Below, piece by piece: positions 1 through 61,600 of a stretch of 64,000 nucleotides of DNA. The DNA is from Actinomycetota bacterium. Lineage in GTDB: Bacteria > Actinomycetota > Acidimicrobiia > Acidimicrobiales > JACCXE01. The stretch covers positions 6,058 to 70,057 of the forward strand of contig JBEEFT010000184.1 of assembly GCA_041166225.1 (NCBI GenBank), written 5' to 3'. The position numbers and the translations under genes were made by a program. The notes beneath the pieces were generated by a model. It made no database searches. It had not been told where the DNA came from and worked only from the letters and a program-made list of their open reading frames with translations. Within the stretch, counting starts at the first letter, position 1. Each line of letters begins with the position of its first letter.

Positions 1-1100
1 TCACAACGAAGAGCGGCTTCAGCCTCCGAGGCAGCAAGAACCACCCGCTGTTGTGCCTCGTGCCGGTAGCGGGCGTCCCGATGCTGCAGTGGCTAATGCT
101 CGACGAAATCACAGAGGGCACCGTCGTCTGCCTTGCCCGCAACGCGTGGATGAACGTCATTCCGCGCGCGCGCGAGATGCAACTCGGTGTGCTCTGCGGC
201 GCGTGGGTGTCCGAAGGTTTCGCGTCCGAGAACCGTGCCGGCATCAACAACACGGACTTCAATTTCTTCGAGGAGATTCTCGAGGCGTACGACGTCATTG
301 TTGGTGGGTCGCGTTACGTGGCGAAACGAGAGACGCGCGTAGACCGCAAGGCGATTTGGGAGCTCGATGTCCAGTCCATGGACGCCTTCAAAGCCAGTCC
401 GCTAGGCGAATTGGTAGGAAGCAAAGCGAGCGACAAGTTCGTTCCATCCGCGGTTTGGAAGGGCGGTTGGGGCGTAAAGCGAGCGTTCCTCATGGCCTGT
501 TTCGAGGGTGATGGCGGCCCCCGAAAGGGCACGGACAATTCGTTCTCGGTTCACTACACGACGTACAGCGAACGCCTCGCTCAGGAGTTGCAGGAGCTCC
601 TCGCAGAGTTCGGGGTGATCGCCAGTATTCAGCGCTACACAAAAGCGAGCGGTGCGATCGAGTTGCGGCTGATCATCAGCGGGCTGCGCAACGTCAAGGC
701 ATTTGCAGAGCGCGTTGGTTTCTTGAAAACCAAGCAAGCCAAGCTCGATGAACTGATTCGCAGGGCGCCCCTTCGAGCGCATCGACTGACGCAGGACCAC
801 GTCCCGTTCGTAGCCGACTTCGTACGCGACGAACTTGAGGATCGCGGGCGTGGCAGTGGGCGCTCGTGGCTCATGGCACACAACTTCGATCGCATCGAGC
901 GGTGGGAGAGCGAGCGCCTTCGCATCATCGATCGGATAAAGGATCCGGAGATCCTCGCCACGATCCTTCCGATCATGGACTCGGGCTATCGCTTCGAGCG
1001 GATCGTTTCGGTTACCGACGAGGAACCCGCCGAGGTCTATTCGCTGCGGGTTGACAGCGAGGACCATTCGTTCCTCGCCGGCGGTTTCGTAAACCACAAC
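1..1100 (+). mobile_element. GyrA intein with LAGLIDADG homing-endonuclease domain (N-terminus lies upstream of the window)
   Basis: nt 3-90 encode ..[28 protein letters not shown], which resembles mycobacterial GyrA intein block B. There are two LAGLIDADG-type motifs: [14 protein letters not shown] (~183-224) and [15 protein letters not shown] (~477-521). The C-terminal splicing blocks [22 protein letters not shown] end at 1100 and are followed by Thr+1 (acc 1101-1103). Confidence 0.85.
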
Positions 1101-3200
1101 ACCGAGTGCCGCCTCGGACTACTCGCCAACGAAATGCTGGCGGGAATCGACGAGAACACTGTCGACTTCGAACCGAACTACACGTTCGAATTCGAACAGC
1201 CAAGCGTGCTGCCATCGCGGTTCCCGAATTTGTTGGTCAATGGGTCACAAGGCATCGCGGTCGGCATGGCCACGAACATCCCGCCGCACAACCTCGGCGA
1301 AGTGATCGACGCCACGATCCACCTGATCGACAACCCCGACGCCACGCCCGACGAACTGATGAAGTTCGTGCACGGTCCCGATTTCCCGACCGGCGGGCTG
1401 ATCCTCGGGCGTCAGGGAATCATCGACGCCTATCGCACGGGCCGCGGTTCCATCCGCGTTCGCGCCAAGACCGAGATCGTGGAAGACAAGAAGGGCGGCG
1501 TCTCAATCGTCGTCAGCGAGTTGCCGTATCAGGCGTCGATGAATGCGATTACGACGCGCATCGCCGAGCTGGTGAACAACAAAGAACTCGAAGGCATCCG
1601 GGCGCTCGACGACCTGTCATCGGGTGTCGACACCAGGCTCGTGATCGGCCTCAAGCGCGACGCCAACGCGCTCGTCGTGTTGAACAACCTGTTCAAGCAC
1701 ACCCAGCTGCAAACCAGCTTCGGCGTGAACATGGTTGCCCTGGTCGACGGCGTGCCCCGCACATTGAACCTGGTCGACGCGCTCAAGGCCTACATCGAGC
1801 ATCAGGTCGACGTCATCACGCGGCGTTCCGAGTTCCGTTTGAAGAAGGCGCAAGACCGAGCGCACATCGTCGAAGGCCTACTGAAGGCGCTCGACATGAT
1901 CGACCGGATCATTGCGTTGGTGCGCGCGTCCGCCGACCGGGCCGAGGCCCGAACTGGTCTCATGGCCGAAGGTTTCGACTTCAGCGAGATTCAGGCCAAC
2001 CACATTCTCGACATGACGATTGGGCGCCTGACGCGCCTGGGTCGCAGCGAGCTCGACGCCGAGATGGCCCAGCTGCGCGAGACGATCGCGGAGCTTCAAG
2101 ACATCCTGTCGAAGCCCGAGGTGCTGCGCACGGTCATCAAGACCGAGATGGGCGCCATCCGCGACAAGTTCGCGACCGGGCGCCGCGCGATCATCACCCA
2201 CGACCCCGGCGAACTCGGCGCCGAAGACTTCATCGACGACGAAGACCTCGTGTTCCTGATTACGCGGGCGGGCTACGTGAAGACCGTTGCCGCGGGCGCG
2301 TTCCGCACGCAGGGCCGCGGCGGTCGCGGTATCGCGGGCGCGAAGCTGAAGGAAGAAGACCTCATCGCGCAGGTCATCCACACGACCGCGCATGCGTTCT
2401 TGTTGTTCTTCTCCACGCGTGGCCGCGTGTTCCGCCTCAAAGCACACGAGATCCCGATGAAGGACCGCACGGCGCGGGGCACGCCGGTGATCAACCTGCT
2501 GCCGCTCGAGCCCGACGAAAAGATCCAGGCGGTCATCGCAACGCGTGACTACCCCAGCGACAAGATGCTGTTGTTCGCCACGAAGAAGGGCGTGATCAAA
2601 AAGACGCCGTTCTCCGAGTACGACAAGAGCCGTCGCGAAGGCTTTATCGCCATCACGCTGAAAGAGGGCGACGAGTTGGTGCGCGTGCTCACCACGAGCG
2701 GCACCGACGACATCTTCCTTGTCACCAGGAGCGGAGCGACTTTGCGCTTCGACGAGCAGTCGGTGCGGCCTACGGGCCGCTCAGCCCAGGGCGTCATCGG
2801 CATGCGCATGCGCGCCGACGACGAGGTGGTTAGTTGCGACGTCGCTCGCGACGACACCGCCATTCTCATCGTCACCGATGCTGGTTTCGGTAAGCGCACG
2901 CAACTCGACAAGTTCCCGCGCAAGGGCCGCGGCGGCCTCGGCATGAAGGGGATCAAGCTCACGGCTAAGCGCGGCTTTGTTGTCGCTGCCTTCATGGTGG
3001 GCTTGGACGACGAAATCATGCTCGCCGCTTCCAACGGTGTCACCGCCCGGATGCCGGTGCGCTCGATTTCAAGCCAGGGCCGAGACGCCACGGGTGTGCG
3101 GGTGATGAACCTCGATAACGGAGCGACCCTTGCCACGGCGGCTCCCATCATCCAGGCTGAAGAAGCCGTCGACGACGACACGGCGATGCCGGTTCAGTAG
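1..3200 (+). CDS. gyrA: DNA gyrase subunit A, 5'-truncated by the window edge and interrupted by an intein (C-extein starts at 1101)
   Basis: Frame 3 is open from nt 3. After ...GGFVNHN the sequence [13 protein letters not shown]...[25 protein letters not shown] matches the GyrA segment that follows the catalytic Tyr. A long C-terminal repeat region follows, and the stop is TAG at 3198-3200. Confidence 0.95.
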
Positions 3201-6653: not shown

Positions 6654-7661
6654 ATGGCAGCGAAGACGGCCGGCATCCGAGCCGCCGTTGTCGGCACCGG
6701 TGCAGTCGGGCTGCGCGCGGCGCGCCAACTGCACGAGACCGACGGCGTGTCGTCGGTGGTCGTAGTGTCTCGCCGCGCAGCTCGCGCCGCGGCAATCGCC
6801 GCAGACTTAGGCGGCGCGGCGTCGGCCGGGGAGTGGCCGGGGGTTGCCACGTCGGTCGACGTCGTCGTCCTCGCGGTGCCCGATGCCGTGCAAGCCGATA
6901 TGGCTCGCGTCGCGATCGGTGACGGCGCCGATGTCGTAGCCACTGCGTCGTCGATCGGCGCGTACGACGCCATGGTCGGCCTCGCGCACCGCGCCGCGTC
7001 GCTCGACCGGGTGGTGGTCGCGAGCGCGGCGATGTCACCGGGGTTGACCTGTCTGCTCGCGTGGCGCGCCGCACGTGACCTCGACGTAGTCGACGAGGTG
7101 CACGTGGCTACGTCCGGCACCGGCGGACCAGCGTGTGCGCGAGCTACGCACGCAGCGCTGCGTGGCCCCGCGGCGCTTTGGCGCGACGGTCGCTGGCAAA
7201 GTGAGCCTGCAGGCTCGGGCCGCGAACTGTGCTGGTTCCCTGAACCGGTTGGCGGCCAAGACTGTTACGCGTCGAGTTCGGCCGAGACGTCGCTGATGCT
7301 CGCGTTGTTCCCGACGGCGCGGCGTATCAGTGCCCGTGTGGCGGCGACGCGCCGAGACCGCGCCACGTCGTGGCTGCCGATGCTGCGGCCGCCGCACCCC
7401 GAAGGTCTCCTCGGCGCGGTGCGAGTGGAGGTGCGGGGATGGAAGAGCGGCGCCGCGTGCACCAACGTGATGGGCGCCGTCGACCGCCCCGCTGTCGCGG
7501 CGGGAACATTGGCCGCGCTTTCGGCCGTGGCCTCGGCGCGGGGAGAGTTGGCTTACGGCGTCGGTGGCCTCGCGGCGCTAGCGAAGGACCCCGCCGCGCT
7601 GCTGGTCGGACTCGCCGAACGCGGGGTGAAGGTTGCGCAGTACGCAGGCGGCGGCGAGTAG
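6654..7661 (+). CDS. Rossmann-fold NAD(P)-binding protein, saccharopine-dehydrogenase-like (tentative)
   Basis: The N-terminal sequence IRAAVVGTGAVGLRAARQL contains a GxGxxG dinucleotide-binding motif. The remainder is not diagnostic by eye. Confidence 0.45.
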   Translation: MAAKTAGIRAAVVGTGAVGLRAARQLHETDGVSSVVVVSRRAARAAAIAADLGGAASAGEWPGVATSVDVVVLAVPDAVQADMARVAIGDGADVVATASSIGAYDAMVGLAHRAASLDRVVVASAAMSPGLTCLLAWRAARDLDVVDEVHVATSGTGGPACARATHAALRGPAALWRDGRWQSEPAGSGRELCWFPEPVGGQDCYASSSAETSLMLALFPTARRISARVAATRRDRATSWLPMLRPPHPEGLLGAVRVEVRGWKSGAACTNVMGAVDRPAVAAGTLAALSAVASARGELAYGVGGLAALAKDPAALLVGLAERGVKVAQYAGGGE

Positions 7662-49998: not shown

Positions 49999-50799
49999 TC
50001 AATAGTGGCCGAGTGAGCCGGTACGGCGACATTGCCGTACCGACCACTCGAAACCCCAGAACGCCACCGGCACCAGCACCACCGTGAACAGGCCGAGCGC
50101 TAATGCGTCGCGCCCGATCGCACCAAGGTCCGGGTTCGGAACGAGCGCGAGCCGGACGCCTTCGAGGCCGTGGCTCATCGGCAGCGCGTACGCCAACAGC
50201 TGGAACGGGCGCGGTAACACCGAGATCGGGTAGAGCACGCCGCCCAACAGCCCGAACGCGGACCCGACGAAGCCGAGCAGAGCACCGGTGCGCTTGACCA
50301 CCATGATCAGCCCCGCGGCCGCTAGGCCCACCGCGCTGAACGCAGCGAGGGTCAACAACAACATGCCGCTTGCGATCGCCAGGTTCCCGAGCGCGATTTT
50401 GGCGTGAAACAACAGCGCTCCGAGCGCGATGTACAACACGAGCTGGACCGTTGCGAAGATGAACGGCCACGCCGCGCCACACACCAGCAATAGTTTCGGG
50501 TCGTTCGGGGTGACGAGTAACGCCTCCATCGTGCCCATCTGCTGTTCTTGGCCGAGACTTCCGGCAAAGCTGCCCAAGGCCACCGAGAAGTAGCTCAGGG
50601 CCGCAGTTCCGACGAGCGCGAACGTGAAATAGTCGCCGCCGTAGGGACGCAGGGCGGTGGTGTTTCCCGGCACGAGACGACTCAGGAAGCCCGCCGACAG
50701 GAGCGTCGAGAAGATTCCGGCGAACTGCGTGATGAGCGCGAGGCGATACGTCTTTTCCTGGCGGAAGTCGCGGCGAACGAAGGCACGAATCAACGTCAC
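49999..50799 (-). CDS. ABC-2-type exporter permease
   Basis: The GTG at 50799 overlaps the ATPase stop (GTGA). The six-TM ABC-2 pattern begins VTLIRAFVRRDFRQEKTYRLALI.... Confidence 0.8.
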   Translation of the reverse strand: MTLIRAFVRRDFRQEKTYRLALITQFAGIFSTLLSAGFLSRLVPGNTTALRPYGGDYFTFALVGTAALSYFSVALGSFAGSLGQEQQMGTMEALLVTPNDPKLLLVCGAAWPFIFATVQLVLYIALGALLFHAKIALGNLAIASGMLLLTLAAFSAVGLAAAGLIMVVKRTGALLGFVGSAFGLLGGVLYPISVLPRPFQLLAYALPMSHGLEGVRLALVPNPDLGAIGRDALALGLFTVVLVPVAFWGFEWSVRQCRRTGSLGHY

Positions 50800-51578
50800 T
50801 GCGCCGCCAGCGCTTTCATTGCCCGGCCCAACGTCGTTTTGTTGACGTTCGCTACGTCGTCGACGATCTCGCCCTCGCGCAGCACGCTCACTCGCTCGCA
50901 CACGTCGGCTGCCTCGACGACGTCGTGCGTTGTGAGCAGCGTGCTGACCCCGGCGTCGTCGCGCAGGCGCTTGATCACTACGTGAAATTCCGAGCGCGAA
51001 ACCGGGTCGAGGCTGCGCGTCGGTTCGTCGAGCAGCAGGATCATCGGCCGGTGTAGCAGCGCGCGGGCGAGGCCGAGTCGGCGTCCCATCCCCTGGGAGA
51101 AGCCCGACACCGGCCGATCCGCGTGTTCGGCCAGATTGACCATCTCGAGTGTCGTCTCGATGATTTCGTCCGGCGCGGCGAGGCGGTGCAACGCGGCTGC
51201 AAACTCGAGATTCTGGCGAGCCGTGAGCCGCCAGTACAGGCTGCGCTCGTCACCAGTGCTGAACCCGATCAGCCCGCGAACCGCATCACCTTCGCGCTCG
51301 ACGTCTCGGCCACCAACCAGCGCGCTGCCGCTGTCGGCGGTGACGAGTGTGGCGAGGATGCGCAGGAACGTGCTCTTGCCTGAACCGTTCGGCCCCATCA
51401 CGCCGTGGACCGTGTCCCGGGCGACGATTAAATCGACGCCGCGCAAAGCGTTGACGACACCCTTGGGCCGGCCAGGCCAAAAGCCCCGCACGTAGAAGCG
51501 CTTCTCAACGCCCGTTGCGTCGACTGCGTTGGCACCGAAGGGCGGGTCTGTGCGTATGTCGGGCGAGGCGGTTACCAC
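50796..51578 (-). CDS. ABC transporter ATP-binding protein (DrrA/ABC-2 partner type)
   Basis: Walker A is GPNGSGKST, the signature is FSQGMGRRLGLARAL and Walker B is ILLLDEPTRSLD. Confidence 0.9.
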   Translation of the reverse strand: MVTASPDIRTDPPFGANAVDATGVEKRFYVRGFWPGRPKGVVNALRGVDLIVARDTVHGVMGPNGSGKSTFLRILATLVTADSGSALVGGRDVEREGDAVRGLIGFSTGDERSLYWRLTARQNLEFAAALHRLAAPDEIIETTLEMVNLAEHADRPVSGFSQGMGRRLGLARALLHRPMILLLDEPTRSLDPVSRSEFHVVIKRLRDDAGVSTLLTTHDVVEAADVCERVSVLREGEIVDDVANVNKTTLGRAMKALAAQ

Positions 51579-51596: not shown

Positions 51597-52019
51597 GTGA
51601 CGTCGGCCCGGCTGCATCTGCGAATGACGACTTTGCTCGTCGCGTCCGCAGTGTCGTTGCGTCGCCGGGACACTACCGAGACGCTGCGCCGCATGCTTGA
51701 CAGCACGCGGCGTTGGCCGCCGTTTTCGGGGCCGGAGGCGCTCCGAGCGCTGCGGGTTCCGGCGCGGGCGCTGAGGGCAAACTGTCTCACTCAATCTGTT
51801 GCCCTCACGGTTGCGTTTGAGCGCGCAAACCAGAACCCGACGCTAGTTCTGGGGTGCAGGCGCTACGAGAACCGAAAATGGGGCGCGCATGCCTGGGTCA
51901 TCGTCGGCTCGGACGTCTTCGACGCTATTCCGAGCGGTGCTCACGAGCCGCTCGCGCGGCTCACCGCGGAAACCGAATGGGTGCCCGCCCCGATGCCGCC
52001 CAAGCGGCAAGCGGATTAG
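51597..52019 (+). CDS. Lasso-peptide-type B2 protein (transglutaminase-like Cys protease, PF13471-like)
   Basis: ..ANCLTQSVALTVAFERANQNPTLVLGCRR...WGAHAWVIVGSDVFD carries the Cys...His...Asp triad context seen in McjB-C-terminal/B2 proteins. It starts at the GTG at 51597. TACATT (51583-88) lies 8 nt upstream, which suggests a leaderless transcript. Confidence 0.8.
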   Translation: MTSARLHLRMTTLLVASAVSLRRRDTTETLRRMLDSTRRWPPFSGPEALRALRVPARALRANCLTQSVALTVAFERANQNPTLVLGCRRYENRKWGAHAWVIVGSDVFDAIPSGAHEPLARLTAETEWVPAPMPPKRQAD

Positions 52020-52141
52020 AGAATGAGGCTGATGTTGATGGCCTCGGCCTGACGGCCTTGAGTCCACTCTTCGATCGAGCCGTAATCGCTCAACTGCGGC
52101 GTTTCGTAGCCGTCTTCGGTGGTGTTGATTGCGTCGTTCAT
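52016..52141 (-). CDS. 41-aa RiPP precursor with a canonical lasso-type leader and an atypical 13-aa core (not in the ORF track)
   Basis: GGAGGA lies 6-7 nt upstream of the ATG (52141..52139). The product is MNDAINTTEDGYETPQLSDYGSIEEWTQ|GRQAEAINISLIL. Y12-x-x-P15-x-L17-x3-G21-x5-T27-x28 fits the lasso leader motif YxxPxLx3Gx5Tx exactly, and Gly follows at core position 1. The stop TAA (52018..52016) overlaps the B2 stop TAG (52017-52019). Confidence 0.75.
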   Translation of the reverse strand: MNDAINTTEDGYETPQLSDYGSIEEWTQGRQAEAINISLIL

Positions 52142-52224
52142 TTCTCTCCTCCGGTCGTACCTGTCGAGAACGCACCAACTGACCTTTTCTTGCGTAAAGA
52201 TCTAGAAGATGAGAGTTTCTTGAG
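52142..52224. promoter_or_regulatory. AT-rich divergent control region between the precursor gene and the PqqD/kinase operon
   Basis: By my count, 52181-52224 is about 39% G+C in a window that otherwise looks roughly two-thirds G+C. It contains TTTCTTG twice (52186-92 and 52216-22), the palindromes AGATCT/TCTAGA (52198-52206) and AAGAT twice. Confidence 0.5.
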
Positions 52225-52506
52225 GTGCGACGCTTTGTCCCCAGTAGTGACGTGATCATCCATGAAGAAGAGGGCGACGCCTTCTTGCTGCATGTTGAGT
52301 CAGGACGATACTACGGACTCAACCGTTCTGCACTAGTTGTTTGGAACGCCGTCGTCGCAGGGGCCGATCCGGTCGACGCATTAACCCAGAAGTGGCCGCA
52401 GCGACAGCCCGAAACATTGCGTTCCGACGCAGAAGCCCTGGTCACGGGGCTGTTAAACGCAGGCTTGATCACCGAGCAGACCGAGGCGCCGGGACCCGCT
52501 GCGTGA
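52225..52506 (+). CDS. PqqD-family RiPP recognition element (lasso B1-type chaperone)
   Basis: 93 aa. ..EEGDAFLLHVESGRYYGLNRSALVVWNAV..G....AL........ETLRSDAEALVTGLLNAGLI is the PqqD/RRE pattern. Confidence 0.8.
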   Translation: MRRFVPSSDVIIHEEEGDAFLLHVESGRYYGLNRSALVVWNAVVAGADPVDALTQKWPQRQPETLRSDAEALVTGLLNAGLITEQTEAPGPAA

Positions 52507-53417
52507 CCGCAGCCGAGACGTGGCCGGGATGCCACGGCGTGCGCCTCGTGGGCGAGCCGGTCGATCTCGGAACATCTGCTGGGTCGCCTCTGGCTGAAGC
52601 AACCATTCGTTTCGGCGCTGTAGCGGTAGGCGACTCTGATCACCTGTGGACGCAACACGGCGAGGCCGTTGTCGACGGCGAGCACTTCGAAGTCGACCGG
52701 GTGATGCGCCAACGGGGCCGCGGGGCTTACGTCCTGACCGGTAGTGGTGGCCCCACGATGGAGGTTGACCAGGACGCCGCCACCATCACGATTGAGGATG
52801 GCGACGAGGCCGTCCAGCTTCAGCTGCTGGCGACTTTCGGGGTCCCGTTGATCTTGCACACCACGGACGCGCTGGTGCTGCACGGCTCGGCCTGCGCGCT
52901 TGGTGACCGCACGATCGTGGTCTGCGGAGAGTCGGGTTCGGGCAAGTCGACGCTTCTGGTCGGGCTTGCGGACGCCGGTTGGACCCCGATTACCGAAGAT
53001 CTGTGCGCGGTCGATTTCCGGCCCCAGACGCCGCACGTATGGAGCGGCCCGCCATGGGTGCGCATCGGGCACGGCAAACCCGGCCCCGTCGGCAGCGCGC
53101 AGCGCTTCGGTTCCGCGTACAAGACGGGGTGGGACATAGCGGCGTCGCAAACGCCAGTGCCGCGCCCGATTACCCACGTGGTGTTGCTCGACGCCCCCGG
53201 CGGCGGCGACGCGCTGCTCGAGCCGGTCCCGGCGGCGGTCGCGATCCGGCGCCTCGCGCCGCACGGTGTTTGGCTCGGCGACCAAGACGAGCTCGGGCGG
53301 CGTCTGTTCGGACCTATCGCCGATCTAGTCGCAAAAGTGCCTGCGTTCCGGCTTCGCATGCCCCGCAGCGACTCATGGCTTGACGAGGTCCCGGGGCTTC
53401 TCGCGGCCCGGCTCTAG
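52503..53417 (+). CDS. HPr-kinase-related serine kinase (HprK C-terminal-domain-like)
   Basis: The GTG at 52503 overlaps the PqqD stop (GTGA). ALVLHGSACALGDRTIVVCGESGSGKSTLLVGLADAGWTPITEDLCAV matches the HprK P-loop core. Confidence 0.75.
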   Translation: MTAAETWPGCHGVRLVGEPVDLGTSAGSPLAEATIRFGAVAVGDSDHLWTQHGEAVVDGEHFEVDRVMRQRGRGAYVLTGSGGPTMEVDQDAATITIEDGDEAVQLQLLATFGVPLILHTTDALVLHGSACALGDRTIVVCGESGSGKSTLLVGLADAGWTPITEDLCAVDFRPQTPHVWSGPPWVRIGHGKPGPVGSAQRFGSAYKTGWDIAASQTPVPRPITHVVLLDAPGGGDALLEPVPAAVAIRRLAPHGVWLGDQDELGRRLFGPIADLVAKVPAFRLRMPRSDSWLDEVPGLLAARL

Positions 53418-54530
53418 CGGGGCGCGGCTGCGACCAGTAGCGATGCGCCACGATCGGCGGATGAGGCGCCCGCCGAGAATCGCCGCCAGCTTTACCGATG
53501 CCGCGGGGCCCTGGCGCCCGATTACGTCGCTCAGTACCAAGGTCGCCTGCGCGCGACGTTCGTCGACCAGCGCGTAACGCAAACTCATTCGGATTGCGCT
53601 GTCGCGCCGCATTACCGGCCAGTCGGCGGACAGCACGGGCGCAATTGCGGCCCGCCGTTCTCGGCCACCACTGACGCGTCGCAGTTCCTCCGGTGACGCG
53701 ACGCCGAGGCGTTGGGCCTGGGCGAGGGCCACTGCCACGGCAGTGGGGCAGCGCGCCTCGTAGGCGATGCGGCCGACGCCGTCCCAGTCGACGCCGTCGC
53801 GCTGCTCGGCATCGGTGACGACCATGGCGATGTCGACGGTCCACAAGAGACGCGCGAATACGTGGAACGGCTTGGCCGCGTGCGCCGCCAGCATCACAAT
53901 CTCGATTTCGGGCGGCAAGTCGAATGCCGGCGCTCCGTACAGCGTCGTGTTTCGGCGGGCCGCCCACAGTTGGTCGCTCGTGAGGCGATTCGCCCGCGAA
54001 CGCCAGAACGCGAGGTCGCGATGCAGGTCGATGGGCAGGCCGGGCAACGCCGGGTGGGTCAAGTCGATCTCGTGGGGCCGGCGCTCGGGTAGCGGGGTCC
54101 AGCCTGCGCCGCCGAGCGCGCCAACCGCCGGCTTGATCTGCTCGGGGGGCAGCACGAGATCGATGTCGTCCATCGGACGCAGGCCGGGATCGGGATAACG
54201 GCTCGCAAGCGCGCCGCCCTTCATTACGAGGGCGGGGTGTCCGGCGTCGGCCAGCGGCTGCAGAGCGAGCGGCCCGATGCGGGGCAACATCAGACGGCTC
54301 TGCGCGTGACATCGCCCGAAGTCGTTCTGCAGGACGTCGACCCAGCGCTCGCCGTCGGCCGCGATGCCGGCCTGCTCGAGCGCGCGCCACAGCAGCGGCG
54401 ACACGCGTTGCACGAGAGCGATGTCGGCGGCTTCGTTGAGGTCGGCGCCCGCGTCGACGGCAGCGAGGACCTCGGCCGGGGATGGTTCGCGTCGGCATGC
54501 GGCCCATAGCAGCGCCGCAGTCGGGTTCAC
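53373..54530 (-). CDS. Uncharacterised nucleotidyltransferase family protein (PF14907/NTP_transf_5-like)
   Basis: ..LVMKGGALASRYPDPGLRPMDDIDLVLPPEQ...AL...GW matches the family core. It is convergent with the kinase gene and overlaps it by 45 nt. Confidence 0.7.
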   Translation of the reverse strand: MNPTAALLWAACRREPSPAEVLAAVDAGADLNEAADIALVQRVSPLLWRALEQAGIAADGERWVDVLQNDFGRCHAQSRLMLPRIGPLALQPLADAGHPALVMKGGALASRYPDPGLRPMDDIDLVLPPEQIKPAVGALGGAGWTPLPERRPHEIDLTHPALPGLPIDLHRDLAFWRSRANRLTSDQLWAARRNTTLYGAPAFDLPPEIEIVMLAAHAAKPFHVFARLLWTVDIAMVVTDAEQRDGVDWDGVGRIAYEARCPTAVAVALAQAQRLGVASPEELRRVSGGRERRAAIAPVLSADWPVMRRDSAIRMSLRYALVDERRAQATLVLSDVIGRQGPAASVKLAAILGGRLIRRSWRIATGRSRAPLEPGREKPRDLVKP

Positions 54531-54603: not shown

Positions 54604-55866
54604 ATGAAGCCGACTACGCGGTTCTTGCTTTCAGGTGCGGCGGCCGCCGCGAATACCGCCAACGCCATCCGTCCCGCGGCGCGCTCGGGTCCGGTGTCGT
54701 TCCCGTCGTTCGCGTTCGGCGTCGTGCCCTCGGAGTGGCCGACGCAGGTCGGGATCGTGCAACTCGCAACGGCCGCGCTGCTCGCGCGCAAAGGCGGGCT
54801 GCGCGGATGGCGCGGCGCCACTGGCGTCGCGGCGTACGCGGCGTCGGTCGCCGGGCTCGTGCACATGCACCGCAAGGCGGGCGAAGCCGGCCGCATTTTG
54901 GAGCAAGCGCTCGTCGACGAGTTGGGCGCGGATTACCGCAAGCGCATCGACGAAGCGTTCACGCCCGCCACTGAAGTGCCGTTGACGCGTCAACAACTCG
55001 TGCGACCCGACCTCGGGATCCGCAAGCGTTACCGCTCGGCGCGCAACCTCAGTTACGGCGACGCCGGCCTGCGTAATCAGCTCGACGTCTGGAAGCGTGC
55101 CGACCTCCCCGCCGACGCCAAGGCGCCGGTGCTGTTTCAGGTGCACGGCGGTGCGTGGACCGTCGGGATGAAGGAAGGCCAAGCGGAGACGACGATGGGC
55201 CACCTCGCCGAACGAGGGTGGGTGTGCGTTACGACGAACTACCGGCTGTCGCCGCGCTCGACGTGGCCCGACCACATCGTCGACGTCAAGAAGGCGTTGA
55301 TGTGGACCAAGCAGCACATCGCCGAACACGGCGGTGACCCTGACTTCATCGTGATCACCGGCGGATCGGCCGGGGGGCACCTCGCGTCGCTCGCAGCGCT
55401 CACGCCCAACCTGGCCGACTTCCAGCCCGGCTTCGAGGACGCCGATACTTCCGTGCAGGCAGCGGTGCCCTTCTACGGCGTGTACGACCTCGTCAACCGT
55501 CACGGAACCAGTCGCGCCGACATGGAACGGCTCATGCAGACGCGCGTGTTCAAGACGCGGTTGTCAGAGGACCGCGCCCGCTGGGAGCAGGCGTCGACCA
55601 TCAGCCACGTGCGGCCCGACGCGCCGCCGTTCTTCGTGCTGCACGGCACGAACGACTCGCTCGTGCCGGTGGAACAGACCCGCAGCTTTGTCGACGAGTT
55701 GCGCAAAGAGTCGACGCAGCCCGTTGTCTACGCGGAACTGCCGGGCGCCCAGCACGCTTTTGAAATCCTGCCGTCGGTACGCGCTTACGCGTGTGCGCAT
55801 GCCGTCGAGCGCTTTCTCGCCGTCATCCGTAGCGAGCACAACGCCGACGTCGCCGCGAATCGCTAA
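54604..55866 (+). CDS. Alpha/beta-hydrolase-fold esterase/lipase (HGG-type) with N-terminal membrane segments
   Basis: The oxyanion motif is VHGGAWTVG, the nucleophile elbow is ITGGSAGGHLA, and a late ..HGTNDSLVP.. ..AQHAFE supplies the Asp and His. Confidence 0.8.
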   Translation: MKPTTRFLLSGAAAAANTANAIRPAARSGPVSFPSFAFGVVPSEWPTQVGIVQLATAALLARKGGLRGWRGATGVAAYAASVAGLVHMHRKAGEAGRILEQALVDELGADYRKRIDEAFTPATEVPLTRQQLVRPDLGIRKRYRSARNLSYGDAGLRNQLDVWKRADLPADAKAPVLFQVHGGAWTVGMKEGQAETTMGHLAERGWVCVTTNYRLSPRSTWPDHIVDVKKALMWTKQHIAEHGGDPDFIVITGGSAGGHLASLAALTPNLADFQPGFEDADTSVQAAVPFYGVYDLVNRHGTSRADMERLMQTRVFKTRLSEDRARWEQASTISHVRPDAPPFFVLHGTNDSLVPVEQTRSFVDELRKESTQPVVYAELPGAQHAFEILPSVRAYACAHAVERFLAVIRSEHNADVAANR

Positions 55867-58670
55867 GCGGTTATCTCAACGGCGGCGCCGTTGAACTCGC
55901 CGTTCTCGTCGACCACCGATCCACGTTTGATCGTGGCGATATCGCCGCGGCGCAGCGCCACATTCGCCGTCCAGCGTCCGTTCACGAGCTTGGCCCGCAT
56001 CGCGAACGTGCGACCAGACGACCGGTGTACGGACACCGTCGCCACCCGCACGTCGCCGTTCGACGCCCAACCACGGAACGTGCACGTCTTGCATATCGGG
56101 CGGCCGCCGTCGTCGTGGATCGCGGCGATCGACGACTTATACGTACGCGGGTACGTCGCGCCAGCCGTGAATGACACTGCGCCGTTGCGTTCGACGCGCA
56201 CCCCGTCGACACGAACGCCTTCCCAAGGCCGAACCGAAAACACACGCGACGTGAGCGCGTAGCTCTTCGGGCCCGCTGCAGTTCGGTGACGACCGTTGAT
56301 CACGAACCGATACGAGCCGGTCGGAACCTGTCCGGCGGCGATGTTCCGCGGGAAGAAGTCTGCCGCTTCGAAGTTGGCCGTCCACAGCCATTCTTGGCGG
56401 TTCGTGCGATACGGGATCTGGCTCTGAATGCCCTTCGGCAACGCGAGCACCGTTTGCACTTCGCCGGTTTGGTCGGCATAGGCGGTCCACGTTTTGCCCA
56501 CGAGTCGTTCGACACGGACCACGGGCTGATCGACGTCGTTGTTGCCACCCCGCCACTTCACCGTTGCCGCGTCGAACCGGTTGATCGATTTCGGTTGCCC
56601 CACGATTTCGGGCGACCCCGCGTCGACAGGCAGCGACGCATTCCACGCGTCGTACGCCTCGCTCGCGGCACGCCCAACAGCCTGGGCCGTTGCCTGTTGA
56701 CGCGCCTCGTCGGCCACCGCGACAACTGCGAGCGGCTCGTCCTTAGGCAGCGGCGCGCCCTGCAGCGCGGCGGCCATGCGCACGAGGCGCGTCACCATGT
56801 AGTCGGCGGTGTGCGGCCCGTATGAGGTGAGGGCTTTGCGGTAGTGATCGAAGCTCATGAACACGCGGTAGCTCACGGTGTAGCCGTTGTAGTCGCCGGT
56901 GTGGCCGAGCCCGACCGTGAGCTTGTAGCCGGGCGCACCGAGGCTTTGGATCTCTTCCTTGGTGAAGTTGCCCTTGATCGCGGCGGGGTCGGCGGGCTCG
57001 GCGTTGGCCGTCGCCGCGTTCGCAGCCGCGTCCCACCCGTTGGCGTCGTTGTGCACCTGCGCAACCATCCGGCGATAGGCGGCGTCGGTGACAACAAGGC
57101 TGCGGTCGTTGAAGACCTTCGCCTGGGGCAGCCCCGGGTTCGGGCAACGCCACGACGTGTCGGGTTTCTGATCGCAGTACGGCGACCAGTCGAAGCCGTC
57201 GTAGATGTTGCCGCGGGTCGCGTCGGTGCGGCTCTCGAGGTTCTTGATGAGGTCGACCTGCGGCTCGCACGAGCATGACGCGAGAAGGATGTCGCCGAGG
57301 CGCACCGCTTGCAGATGGATGCGGGCGTTCTCCTCGAGGATCCCAGCCGATGGGGCGTCGTAATGCTCGGGGACGGGCAGACCAAGCTTCTTCATGGTCT
57401 CGAACGTCTGGCTGGCGTTGTCGTTGCTGTCGCCGATCGGTCGTTCGCAGTCGGGCAGGCCGGCGACGGGTACGCCGGGATTACCTTCGACCGTGGGCTC
57501 GGTCCGGCAGTTGCTCACCGCTGGATAGGGGTGGGACACGGGACCGGGCACCCAGCCGTCGAACATGGCCACGGGGAAGTTCGAACTCCATGGGATCGTG
57601 CCGTGATTCGCGCCGATCTCATTGAACCCCGCGACCACCCTGTCGGCCAAAAATCGCGCGTGACGCTCAGCCTGCGCGTAACCCTGGTGCGCGAACGCTC
57701 GCACGATCCCGCCGCCGATCCGGTCGTTCAGATCTTCGGCCGGTTCGGAACTGCCAACGTCGCCCTGGCTGAACACGAGCGGCGCGTTCAGATCGCGCTG
57801 AACGAATCGTTCGAGCGGCGCGATGTAGTCACCGCTGATCAGGTTGTAACCGTCGAGTGACTCGGGGTGAACGCCGTAGTTCATCCACACGGCGAGTGGC
57901 TTGGGGGTGGCGCCGGAGATGTCGTCGAAGCGCATCACGACGAGTCCGTTGTCGTTCTCGTACTGCGGGTAGCCCGACGGACTGCCGTCGTCGGCGATCG
58001 CTCCGCCCGGGGCGTTTCGATAGTCGCCGCCCGCGGCCACTGTTGTCGCGCCGACGCGTACGGGCTTGAGGTTGGCCTCGGCGTGTTCGATCGCCTGGGC
58101 CATCGCACGGGCCTGGTACTCGAACATTCGCAGGTCCATCACGTCTTGGAACAGCCACGGGCCCGGGGCGGCGGTTGTGTAATACGGCGAGTTGTGGTTG
58201 TGCGTCGCGCTGTAGAGGATGTGATCGGCGGTGACGTGTGAGCCGGCCGTGGCCAGCAGTTGGCCGACGCGGCGCACGAGCATGTCCTGGGCCAAGTAGT
58301 TGTCGCTCTTGAGCAACGCGATCGGCGCGCCGCTCGTGCCGGCGATGACGATGGCGCGCACCGACAGGCGCGACTGCACGCCGTAGCTCGGCTGGCGTTT
58401 CGTGGCGTGGAGGTTCGGGTCGCTGTCGGCGCTGAGCAGGAGCGCAGGGTCGAGCGTGGGCGGGGTGAGGTTGGCGAGATCGTCGGCCCAGTCGTCGACC
58501 TCCAAGCCGGGACGGCTGCTTGCGTACTGACCTGCCGATGCTCCGACGTTCCAGGTTGCATCTACGACACCGACACCGGCGCGCACGCCCGCCGGTGCTG
58601 CTTGCGCGTGACCCGGGACCGCGGCCAGGAGCGCGGCGATTACCGCAGTTGCGACCCCCCAGAACTTCAT
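55863..58670 (-). CDS. Secreted neutral/alkaline-ceramidase-like protein with a large C-terminal extension
   Basis: The ATG at 58670 overlaps the upstream stop (ATGA). The signal is ..AAVPGHAQA|AP. RAGVGVVDATW.., SRLSVRAIVIAG....IALLKSDNY.., and ILYSATHNHNSPYY resemble the neutral-ceramidase N-terminal domain. Confidence 0.6.
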   Translation of the reverse strand: MKFWGVATAVIAALLAAVPGHAQAAPAGVRAGVGVVDATWNVGASAGQYASSRPGLEVDDWADDLANLTPPTLDPALLLSADSDPNLHATKRQPSYGVQSRLSVRAIVIAGTSGAPIALLKSDNYLAQDMLVRRVGQLLATAGSHVTADHILYSATHNHNSPYYTTAAPGPWLFQDVMDLRMFEYQARAMAQAIEHAEANLKPVRVGATTVAAGGDYRNAPGGAIADDGSPSGYPQYENDNGLVVMRFDDISGATPKPLAVWMNYGVHPESLDGYNLISGDYIAPLERFVQRDLNAPLVFSQGDVGSSEPAEDLNDRIGGGIVRAFAHQGYAQAERHARFLADRVVAGFNEIGANHGTIPWSSNFPVAMFDGWVPGPVSHPYPAVSNCRTEPTVEGNPGVPVAGLPDCERPIGDSNDNASQTFETMKKLGLPVPEHYDAPSAGILEENARIHLQAVRLGDILLASCSCEPQVDLIKNLESRTDATRGNIYDGFDWSPYCDQKPDTSWRCPNPGLPQAKVFNDRSLVVTDAAYRRMVAQVHNDANGWDAAANAATANAEPADPAAIKGNFTKEEIQSLGAPGYKLTVGLGHTGDYNGYTVSYRVFMSFDHYRKALTSYGPHTADYMVTRLVRMAAALQGAPLPKDEPLAVVAVADEARQQATAQAVGRAASEAYDAWNASLPVDAGSPEIVGQPKSINRFDAATVKWRGGNNDVDQPVVRVERLVGKTWTAYADQTGEVQTVLALPKGIQSQIPYRTNRQEWLWTANFEAADFFPRNIAAGQVPTGSYRFVINGRHRTAAGPKSYALTSRVFSVRPWEGVRVDGVRVERNGAVSFTAGATYPRTYKSSIAAIHDDGGRPICKTCTFRGWASNGDVRVATVSVHRSSGRTFAMRAKLVNGRWTANVALRRGDIATIKRGSVVDENGEFNGAAVEITA

Positions 58671-61600
58671 CGTCGTGACGTTAGGTGTCTGCCGACCAGC
58701 GCGACCACTAGAAGCGCCGCGGGAATGAGCCCGTTGACGTTGGAGCCCGTCGCCGGCAACGTCTCGGCTGCGAGCACGCGTGTCGCAGGGAAGCCGACGT
58801 TGCCGGCGTCGTCGACCGCTCGCACCGAGACGGTAAGCGGACCGGTGCCCGACGGCACCACCACGGTCGCTTTCGTCGCGCCCGCGGCAAGTTCGAGTGT
58901 CTGCGAACCGACGGTCACGCGGTAGGTGTGGGCCGCTCCGCATGCGCCGTCGTCACCGGTGCGCGTGAACTGCACGTCGACCTGATCACCGACGCGCGAG
59001 ACACTCGAGATCGACGGCGTGCCGGGGCGGTCGGCGTCGGTGCCATAGGCGCCGGTGTTGTGGAGGTCGTGGCCGTTCTTCGGCCACTCGGGCGTTTGGC
59101 ACGCCGCGCCGTCGGTATGCCACAGGAACAACTGTCCGTCGCGTGTGGCGAGCGCCAGCTCGAGTTTGCCGTCGCCGTCCATGTCACCTGCACCCGCCGA
59201 CGACACCGCCCAGCCCGCTGTGAACTTCGGGAACGTCGGCGCTGGACGCCCGCCGTCGCCGTACGCAGCGAGGTCGTACATCGCCGAGGCTTGCACCACC
59301 TCGGGCCGCCCGTCACCGGTGACGTCGAGGATCACCGGTGTGTTGATGAACTGAAGGTCGTTCATCTGCGCGGGAAAACCGGGCGCGAATTGGCCGGTGG
59401 TCGCGTCCCACACCGAGATGTGATCTTCGGCCAGCAGTTGCTGTTCCGGGAGGATCACGTCGAGGAGTCGGCGGGCGCCGGTGGAACCCATCGCGAAGTT
59501 GATCTGCTTGCTCGCACCCACGTGTCCGAACACGCCACCGCCCAGCGATGGGATCGTTGGCAGGTCCGTTGCCGTGCTGCCCAGACCGGGCACTGTGGTC
59601 GCCGCGGTTTTGTACCGGCCGTCGTTGCCCGCGCCGTAGTAGCTCGAGCCGTTCGCGTTCAACAGGTACGCCGGGCTGCCGATCGACGCGGTACCGATCT
59701 CACGTTTGCCGTTACCGTCGACGTCGGCCATCACCGGTTGGCCGTTGGAGCCTTCACCCACGTACGGCAACAGTTCGAGGCTCAACATCGCGATGGGGAC
59801 GGGCCATCCCGTGACGTAAGCCTGGTCATCGGGGTGGGGTGTGGCGGCCGAGCGCGGAGTTTGGGGGTGCGCGGTGCCGTCGTGGTGCAACAGGTACGTG
59901 CGCGTGTTGCCGGTGGCGTTGACGGCTCCGATCGCGGCCACCACGGGGTCCACGGTGTTCGGAGTTTCCGCGTACTCCTCGTTGACATTGGTTGCGACTT
60001 CGAGCGTGCCGTCGCCGTCGACGTCACCCACCGACGGCGTCGCGATCACTTTGCGACCGAAGTGCGCCTCGGCGTCAGCGGTGAAGGTGATGCGGTGGGT
60101 GACGGGGTCGACCGACTTGACCTTCGCGGGGTCACGCAGCAACACCGGCCACCCCTTCACCGGTGTGCCGTCGGCGTGCCACGCGTAGATGTGGCCGTCG
60201 TTCGAGCCCGCGATGAGTTCGAGGCCGCGCGTTGTCGGATCGAGATCGGCGGCCGCAGGTTGTGATGTGAAGGCGCGGTCGACCGTGTTGAGGTGATCGC
60301 GCACGTCGGGCGCGCCGTCGTCGTCGCAACGCGCGTTGCGCACCACTTGGCACGCCGTCTCATACGAGAAGGCACGGTTGCCGCGCACCGGGAACCCGTT
60401 CACCGGCCGGCCGTCGTTGTGCCAGACGTGCAGGTCGCCTTCGATGTCAGCGACACCAACCTCAGGCGTGCCGTCACCGTCGAGGTCGGCAACCACCGGC
60501 GCGCCGGTGAGCACCGCGGCGTACACAGTCTTCGGGACGTCGCCGCGGGTGTACGCGTTCGCACCGCTGCTGGGCAGATTGATCGCGCGTGTGTGGACCG
60601 GCCATCCGGCGGCTTCGGTGCCGTCGGCTTTGAAGGCGTGCACGAAGCCATTGCCGTCGCCCATCACGAGTTCGTCGCGCCCGTCGTTGTCGAGGTCCTC
60701 GAACGCCGGCGACCCCGCACCGTCGCCTTCCAACGCGCGCGGCCACCCGGGAACCAGCGTTGGGTCGTCGTGGGCGAACGCCTGATGCTGGGCGATGGCG
60801 GTTTGCCACGGTTGGTCGCCGGTCTTGACGACGACCCGAATTCGGAACGCGTCCTTCTCGGGAAGCGAACGTGCGGTGGGGTCGTCGGCCGGTGTGTAGG
60901 GCGGCACGGAGTGGTCGATCGCGGCGCGCACCTCGGCCAAGTTGATGGTGGCGAGCGTGCCCTCGACGGCGTGGTTGGCCGCAGCGTGTTTGACCGTGGT
61001 CCACTTGTCGGCCGCGGGCCAGCGCGGGGGTTGCACGCCGGGCGCATATTGAACTTCCCACGTGAAGTTCGTGGCCCGGGGCGCCGCGACGCGCCCGGTG
61101 ACCTTCACGACGCCGCGCGCAGGAAGCGGTTCCCACCAGGCCGGCGCGGTGATGTCGGCTTCGGGTGGAATGTGGCCCGCGGCGACGAGGCCAACAAGGT
61201 CGTCGCTGCGGATCCGACCCCAGCCACTGATCTGATCCCACCCCGCCGTCGTGACGAAACGTGCGCTCGCGGGAAGCGTGGTGACGAAATTGTTGGGCGG
61301 GCCGGGAGGTTTGGGTGTGGAGAAGTCGACGTCCTGCGCGGCGAGGCGGAACAGTTGCTTTGCTTCCTCAGCCGAGAGCGGGCGCCCCGATGCGTCCGGT
61401 TTGATCACGCCCTTTTGCACCGCGTTGCGCGCCGCCGAGTACAACAGCCCGGCCATGCCCGCGCTCTGCCCGACGGCGTCGGACGAACAAGACGACGAGG
61501 CGACGGTCACCCAGATGTAACCGCCGAAGTTCGTACACCCGTTGAACGCGAGCCACGTCGCTGGATGCTGCACCGTGTCAACGGAATGGGTGACCGAGTT

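Follow-up and report, generated by a model that had tools for sequence, protein, structure and literature searches.

What does a precursor gene with a lasso-type leader make when its core cannot close a lasso ring and no cyclase is found at its side? The question is raised by gene A, an open reading frame (ORF) of 41 codons in a stretch of 64,000 nucleotides (the window) from an Actinomycetota bacterium of the order Acidimicrobiales, known as a metagenome-assembled genome (MAG; assembly GCA_041166225.1, contig JBEEFT010000184.1, positions 6,058 to 70,057). A preliminary description, made from the sequence without database searches, had drawn attention to this ORF and to its antisense position between two genes, B2 and B1. 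We consider it likely that gene A, together with B1, B2, a kinase gene (K) and a gene for a nucleotidyltransferase-fold protein (N), forms a lasso-derived pathway for a peptide made on the ribosome and modified after translation (RiPP) that operates without a macrolactam cyclase, and that its product is a linear peptide that carries a phosphate, and perhaps a sugar as well, on the serine at core position 10 (Ser10). The parts of the precursor gene are:

52016..52141, minus strand: precursor gene A, 41 codons plus stop, ATG start, product MNDAINTTEDGYETPQLSDYGSIEEWTQGRQAEAINISLIL
52147..52152, minus strand: Shine-Dalgarno sequence GGAGGA, five nucleotides 5' of the ATG at 52141, read from the sequence
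52058..52141, minus strand: leader region, residues 1-28, with Y12, P15, L17, G21 and T27 and the family-specific G[ST]IEEWT
52019..52057, minus strand: predicted core GRQAEAINISLIL, 13 amino acids, with the Ser10 codon AGC at 52030-52028

The coordinates and the translation of gene A, which divides into leader and core as MNDAINTTEDGYETPQLSDYGSIEEWTQ|GRQAEAINISLIL, were as the preliminary description had given them, and so were the Shine-Dalgarno sequence (at 52152-52147; purine-rich stretches of this kind also precede the start codons of gene A orthologues) and the agreement with the lasso leader pattern YxxPxLx3Gx5Tx, with all five defining residues in place. T27 falls at position -2 of the leader/core junction, Q28 at -1, and G29 becomes core position 1; the predicted cleavage site is placed from this Thr(-2) and Gly(+1). 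The core holds one acidic residue (Glu at position 5), one Ser (position 10) and an Asn at position 8, and the mass of its unmodified linear form, calculated by hand as about 1396.80 Da, was recomputed as 1396.8038 Da (monoisotopic). The statement that the gene is unannotated held in part: it carries no specific name, yet it has been called in the public record, where the identical protein is listed in NCBI as 'MAG: hypothetical protein QOJ00_2647 [Actinomycetota bacterium]'. Two members of the precursor family are named there 'lasso RiPP family leader peptide-containing protein', the name that PGAP gives such peptides.

Could such a short ORF have arisen by chance? Translated in six frames, the window holds the strict motif Y..P.L...G.....T.G once, where trinucleotide shuffles give 0.01, the GC content of gene A by codon position (0.50/0.38/0.76) is coding-like, and the peptide scores 21.3 bits against NCBIfam NF033521 (lasso_leader_L3; cut-off 19), a model that spans a 20-residue leader only and is silent on the core and on whether a lasso forms. 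Moreover, a profile search of 5.8 billion proteins returned 270 relatives of the precursor, and the same five-gene set recurs in related loci. Gene A is therefore a real, conserved gene and not a chance ORF.

A direct peptide search found two metagenome relatives, each flanked on its contig by PqqD and B2 genes, and a profile of kinase homologues led to 12 species-representative loci (uncultured Actinomycetota, Acidimicrobiales or Mycobacteriales MAGs) and 20 metagenome loci. The loci fetched contain 29 precursors, 26 of them unique, with a common leader consensus (YE.P.L..[YF]G[ST]IEEWT.). The preliminary description had let its reading depend on conservation of the ORF in homologous loci, and the ORF is conserved there: in alignment A2 the residues Y12, P15, L17, G21 and T27 are invariant (24/24), and E13, I23, E24 and S38 are conserved in at least 90%. 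All ten orthologues tested match NF033521, seven of them above its cut-off. Pairwise variation by codon position among 27 unique leader segments of 51 nucleotides is 0.23/0.18/0.39, i.e., the third position varies about twice as much as the others, which indicates purifying selection acting on the precursor protein.

What, then, is conserved in the cores? The statistics refer to the top 120 of the 270 profile matches, all of which have the leader motif and which together hold 113 unique cores of 11-16 amino acids. Ser is present in 110 of these and Thr in the other three, with about three hydrophobic residues after it in every case and frequently a G, P or LP at the end, so that the suggestion of Ser as a possible tailoring site falls on the one near-invariant residue of the core. 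An Asp or Glu at positions 7-9, which the preliminary description had noted as the requirement of known lasso rings, occurs in only 27/113 unique cores, and 28/113 have no acidic residue at all. These counts exclude a lasso ring for the family taken as a whole, and what had been claimed for the window core extends family-wide: judged from the core sequences, the conserved feature is a Ser with a hydrophobic tail and not a lasso ring.

Two subgroups of cores depart from the window core in composition. Exactly two Cys are found in 31/113 unique cores, in the arrangement C-x4-C-[IV]-S (e.g., GPCSNLICISIILP; further examples at L016:~390-442(-), L017:~425-475(-), L019:~7412-7498(-) and L020:~1829-1918(-)), and cores with a single Cys are not present among the 113. 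A disulfide loop of six residues immediately ahead of the invariant Ser is suggested by this arrangement, and such a loop may stand in for the lost macrolactam ring. In three other loci (L012:~4289(-), L013:1770-1877(-) and L023:7577-7672(-)) Gln instead of Gly follows the Thr-x site, with cores QEPPIDLEISIVIG and QNPPIEIEVSLVIG; such cores, if cleaved at this site, could acquire an N-terminal pyroglutamate.

Is there an enzyme that could close a ring? No asparagine-synthetase-type cyclase is encoded among the large window ORFs chosen for the Pfam scan, the PP-loop motif SGGxDS is absent from every reading frame of related loci totalling about 437 kb, and a relaxed regular expression for it matched only in the N gene of L014 and the Rho gene of L025. 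A Pfam scan of 20 large ORFs beside related clusters likewise returned no Asn_synthase; these ORFs belong to melibiase-like, acyl-CoA dehydrogenase, ABC-2 permease, Rho, aldehyde dehydrogenase, carboxyltransferase, beta-lactamase and AMP-ligase families. The absence of a cyclase, as earlier asserted for this locus, is thereby borne out for the scanned window ORFs and for the related loci. It might be argued that gene A encodes a true lasso precursor whose cyclase lies elsewhere in the genome, as the leader, B1 and B2 are of canonical lasso type, the source genome is a MAG searched over the 64-kb window with 8-10 kb of flank in the related loci, and the 27 unique cores with an acid at positions 7-9 do exist; we nevertheless hold this to be very unlikely, with Asn at position 8 and the sole acid at position 5 of the window core, a ring at position 8 that would leave a tail of five residues, an acidic position that is unconserved and missing altogether from the acid-free cores, and no cyclase linked to the cluster in any locus examined. 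With neither cyclase nor ring acceptor, the product is expected to stay linear.

The genes that accompany gene A are:

51597..52019, plus strand: B2, transglutaminase-fold cysteine leader peptidase, 140 amino acids (PF13471, 4.5e-10; NF033537, 1.2e-10)
52225..52506, plus strand: B1, PqqD-type RiPP recognition element (RRE), 93 amino acids (PF05402, 8.6e-10; NF033530, 4e-10, below the cut-off)
52503..53417, plus strand: K, HprK-like P-loop kinase, 304 amino acids, GTG start, four-nucleotide overlap with the B1 stop
53373..54530, minus strand: N, NTP_transf_5 nucleotidyltransferase-fold protein, 385 amino acids (PF14907, 1.8e-32)

Gene A lies antisense between B2 and B1, convergent with the former and divergent from the latter, and the overlap of stop codons that had been described amounts to two bases shared between the TAG of B2 (52017-52019, plus strand) and the TAA of gene A (52018-52016, minus strand). 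The lasso type of both neighbours, also part of the preliminary description, is upheld by the domain matches listed above and by the best PDB matches of B1, the lasso RREs TbiB1 and TfuB1. In B1, Y29, N33, W40 and D68 are invariant across 29 orthologues; in the B2 triad, C63 and H98 do not vary across 21 orthologues, and position 109 holds either Asp or Glu in all of them. The preliminary description had overlooked that an HprK-like kinase and an NTP_transf_5 protein are fixed parts of the cluster, as well as the cyclase-less linear polyphosphorylated peptides (LPP), a RiPP family of Bacillota described in 2026.

The start of K was chosen from orthologue length and alignment. Its match to TIGR04352 (2.2e-7, 30 bits) is far under the equivalog cut-off of 200, which on sequence grounds makes K a relative of that equivalog and not a member of it; its profile matches HprK/P in the PDB at an E value of 2.5e-4, and an AlphaFold2 model (pLDDT 93) has PEPCK and HprK/P as its best fold matches. 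Invariant residues are G145, G147, K148 and S149 of the Walker A motif GxGKS, together with E165 and D166. At 50% identity the kinase family resolves into about 60 clusters (E values up to 1e-30), which form a tight clade within a far larger HprK-like set. Most of the kinase homologues P0007-P0025 carry the precomputed label PF27840, which was not returned for the window K by our local copy of Pfam; a recent Pfam family may therefore already cover these kinases. N converges on K with an overlap of 45 nucleotides (53373-53417). In its metal-binding DxD motif D122 and D124 are invariant and D121 is present in 18/19 orthologues; the presumed counterpart of this pair in PsmN, D134/D136, is needed for PsmN activity (PMC6993621).

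Is this gene set a working unit or a remnant? In a tblastn search with the window proteins, every locus of sufficient length had A, B1, B2, K and N arranged in the same order and orientation, bar gene A in L008 and L014, and both K and N are present in 14/14 loci of the first set. In the two exceptions (L008:7453-7557(-) and L014:7446-7565(-)) the precursor gene lies downstream of the ABC permease gene on the same strand, and B2, B1 and K follow one another uninterrupted; the antisense placement of gene A is therefore not obligatory. All-against-all clustering of the ORFs of the loci revealed no conserved gene beyond these five and the ABC transporter genes (plus shadow ORFs). The missing cyclase and the odd orientation of gene A, antisense between B2 and B1, could also mark a decaying lasso cluster in which the ORF and its neighbours are no longer functional, but this is extremely improbable and already contradicted by conservation: the five genes are intact in compared loci whose kinases are only 37-73% identical to the window K, the catalytic residues are invariant, the precursor is under purifying selection and its relatives number 270.

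How might the parts work together? In split-B lasso systems, B1 plus B2 are enough for leader cleavage without a cyclase. From the observed gene content, conservation and catalytic residues we infer the following steps, their order and the product. B1 would bind the leader through YxxPxL, after which K would phosphorylate Ser10 of the core, possibly more than once, with the leader still attached; PadeK, PsmK and LppK phosphorylate their precursors in this state, the HprK-like kinases of lasso and LPP systems acting on a Ser (PMC6993621; PMC13381572). N may then extend the phosphate, e.g., with a hexose, as PsmN is required for the addition of hexose to phospho-Ser (PMC6993621), and this is the least certain step. 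B2, brought to the substrate by B1, would cut after Thr27-Gln28 to release the linear 13-residue GRQAEAINISLIL, and the adjoining ABC-2 transporter would export it. The expected product is a small amphiphile with a hydrophobic C-terminal tail and a charged group on Ser.

Must K and N act on the peptide at all? B1 and B2 could simply remove the leader from a core that stays unmodified, with the kinase and transferase working elsewhere (in self-immunity, on a lipid or sugar substrate, or in regulation). The modification is deduced from sequence and analogy, K and B1 score under the curated NCBIfam cut-offs, and LppN did not act on its peptide when expressed in a heterologous host (PMC13381572), all of which lend this alternative some weight. 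We still judge it unlikely, in view of the constant company of K and N in the first-set loci, the translational coupling of K to B1 through the four-nucleotide overlap, the hydroxyl carried by the sole near-invariant core residue and the action of homologous lasso and LPP kinases on a precursor Ser (PMC6993621; PMC13381572).

A further possibility is that the phosphate on Ser10 serves as a leaving group, or that N nucleotidylylates the Ser, so that the product would contain a dehydroalanine, a crosslink or a nucleotide in place of a stable phosphate or sugar. In class III/IV lanthipeptides the elimination of a phosphate that was first attached is established chemistry, N does have a nucleotidyltransferase fold, and the two-Cys cores place their Cys just upstream of the Ser. 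This appears rather improbable to us: the cluster contains no conserved lyase or cyclase-like gene, most cores, including that of the window, are without Cys, and where Cys occur they come only in pairs, which fits a disulfide better. PsmN-type proteins have, besides, so far been tied to hexose addition (PMC6993621).

Several points weigh against a linear peptide modified on Ser10. The antisense orientation of gene A between B2 and B1 is unusual, and neither a promoter nor a terminator was detected; the search for a cyclase covered the window and the flanks given above and not whole genomes, where a distant cyclase could lie; and all genomes concerned are uncultured MAGs or metagenome contigs, with the cluster known as sequence only. 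The roles in phosphorylation, binding and cleavage, and the product itself, are assigned by homology and analogy, K (TIGR04352) and B1 (NF033530) matching only below curated cut-offs. The target Ser stands three or four residues from the C-terminus, and the specificity of related kinases is not directly transferable, because the Ser modified in paeninodin and pseudomycoidin is the C-terminal residue and that of the LPP is Ser3. LppK did not accept S3T (PMC13381572), yet three family cores carry Thr. The transferase step is the weakest link, because LppN gave no activity in heterologous expression (PMC13381572).

What surrounds the five genes? Next to B2 lies a putative exporter, and the gap between gene A and B1 stands out in composition:

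50796..51578, minus strand: ABC transporter ATPase, DrrA-like (PF00005, 4.6e-26; TIGR01188, 2.3e-56)
49999..50901, minus strand: ABC-2 type permease (PF01061, 4.9e-16), co-occurring with the ATPase in related loci
52142..52224: AT-rich spacer of 83 bp between the divergent genes A and B1, GC 0.47 against 0.655 for the window

The ATPase is a probable exporter subunit whose true start may lie further downstream; the permease is the other presumed subunit, and as its listed ORF start overlaps the ATPase gene, its true start is probably near 50800. This ABC-2 pair adjoins B2 in most, though not all, related loci that extend that far. The 83-bp spacer is presumed to be a promoter region serving both A and B1, which its low GC content fits; a scan for the sigma-70 consensus gave no match, a result that says little for Actinomycetota, and terminator and Rfam scans were likewise negative. 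Strands are interleaved between 49999 and 54530, with N, A, the ABC ATPase and the permease on the minus strand and B2, B1 and K on the plus strand, and a transcript of gene A would run antisense across B2 toward the ABC genes. A minus-strand ORF of 51 amino acids (52138..52293), which has an ATGA overlap with the start of gene A and is antisense to the start of B1, is probably spurious and is not kept in the orthologues read.

Farther out, the flanking thiolase, CMD, luciferase-like, ACAD and SDR genes vary from locus to locus. Beyond the cluster the window encodes a BD-FAE esterase, a ceramidase-like protein, a beta-lactamase-family protein and a Zn peptidase. The esterase (BD-FAE/alpha-beta-hydrolase, 54604-55866, plus strand) stands beside the cluster and is 78% identical to its relative in L003 but absent from most loci, and the adjacent protein of 1026 amino acids (55863-58943, minus strand), with a weak neutral-ceramidase match at its N-terminus, has relatives in L003 and L011 but not in most loci. 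Directly upstream of N, a melibiase/GH31-like gene is found in L006:12013-13668(-), L007:12022-13539(-) and L022:10022-11539(-), the first two assigned by scanning and the third from its near-identity to that of L007; this neighbour may be linked to sugar modification or may be a coincidence. A distant kinase match at 31% identity (L034) lies in another context, with P450, ParE and MFS genes, and was set aside as uninformative.

What would such a pathway signify? We lean, on balance, towards regarding the cluster as one of a separate RiPP family that uncultured soil Actinomycetota harbour and in which a lasso leader/B1/B2 module has been uncoupled from cyclisation to yield linear or Cys-x4-Cys disulfide-looped peptides of 11-16 residues with a phosphate or phosphoglycosyl group on the invariant Ser before a hydrophobic tail; it would hold the first lasso B2 outside lasso biosynthesis and have an origin independent of the Bacillota LPP. 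The interpretation given in the preliminary description is supported and extends to a family of at least 100 distinct precursors, with the chemistry as a proposal. If the reading is right, the lasso leader, RRE and B2 constitute a portable processing unit that can function without a cyclase, which bears on how RiPP classes diversify and also on the handling of such clusters by genome-mining tools, of which RODEO and antiSMASH depend on the presence of a cyclase. About half of the discrete lasso-RRE matches in the RRE-Finder paper were without lasso partners. Linear phosphorylated RiPPs would, in addition, extend from Bacillota to Actinomycetota with a different peptidase, and with five genes, a 13-residue core and one candidate site the system would be compact enough to be useful for the study of HprK-like peptide kinases and NTP_transf_5 enzymes.

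How does the cluster compare with what has been described? In a literature search of incomplete coverage we came across no account of an actinobacterial cluster that combines B1, B2, kinase and transferase and has no cyclase. Among described systems, the LPP of Bacillota (Popov et al. 2026, PMC13381572) come nearest, and with that paper the concept is no longer unprecedented; what is new is an actinobacterial version that depends on B2 and has a minimal core of 13 residues. Both lack a macrolactam cyclase and possess a discrete RRE that reads a YxxP leader (predicted as such for the window), an HprK-like kinase, an uncharacterised NTP transferase and an ABC exporter, and the LPP product is a linear peptide with its modification, polyphosphorylation, on a single core Ser (PMC13381572), a product to which that of the window cluster is likened from genes alone. 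The leader peptidase differs, an SpI-like (SipW-type) LppS in LPP and B2 here, and no signal peptidase turned up in the conserved genes of the cluster or in the window neighbours that were scanned. The LPP leader reads YxxPxVLxHQxIxFETxxS and is cleaved after Thr(-1), whereas the window family has the canonical lasso YxxPxLx3Gx5Tx, so that only YxxP is common to the two. LPP precursors have 35-200 amino acids and variable C-termini (the studied example has a 45-residue core modified on Ser3), in contrast to the short cores with a Ser near the C-terminus found here; the exporter is MsbA-like in LPP and ABC-2/DrrAB-like in the window; and LPP are stated to be restricted to Bacillota (PMC13381572), whereas our family belongs to Actinomycetota.

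The paeninodin and pseudomycoidin clusters (PMC6993621; Zhu et al. 2016 as cited there) share split B1/B2, an HprK-like kinase, a PsmN-type transferase and an ABC exporter; they differ in having a cyclase (C), an Asp/Glu ring acceptor, a C-terminal Ser as target and leaders that tend to WxxP, and in belonging to Bacillota. The actinobacterial systems TbiB1/B2, TfuB1/B2 and fusilassin share the leader YxxPxLx3Gx5Tx and the Cys-His-acid triad of B2 and include the closest solved relatives of B1. Canonical split-B systems of Actinobacteria differ in that they always have an ATP-dependent lasso cyclase, a core of about 15-25 amino acids and Asp/Glu at positions 7-9, and normally neither a kinase nor an NTP_transf_5 protein.

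Set against the definition of the lasso class, the window cluster has the leader and the RRE with B2 but lacks the cyclase and the ring acceptor with a threading tail; set against that of the LPP, it has the RRE, HprK-like kinase and NTP transferase without a cyclase but lacks LppS and the leader consensus. As two defining features are missing for each, we place the family neither with the lasso peptides nor with LPP proper. Of its enzymes, K has a P-loop in an HprK/PEPCK-type fold like the HprK/P-like kinases, and N has PF14907 and a DxD motif like the PsmN-type proteins.

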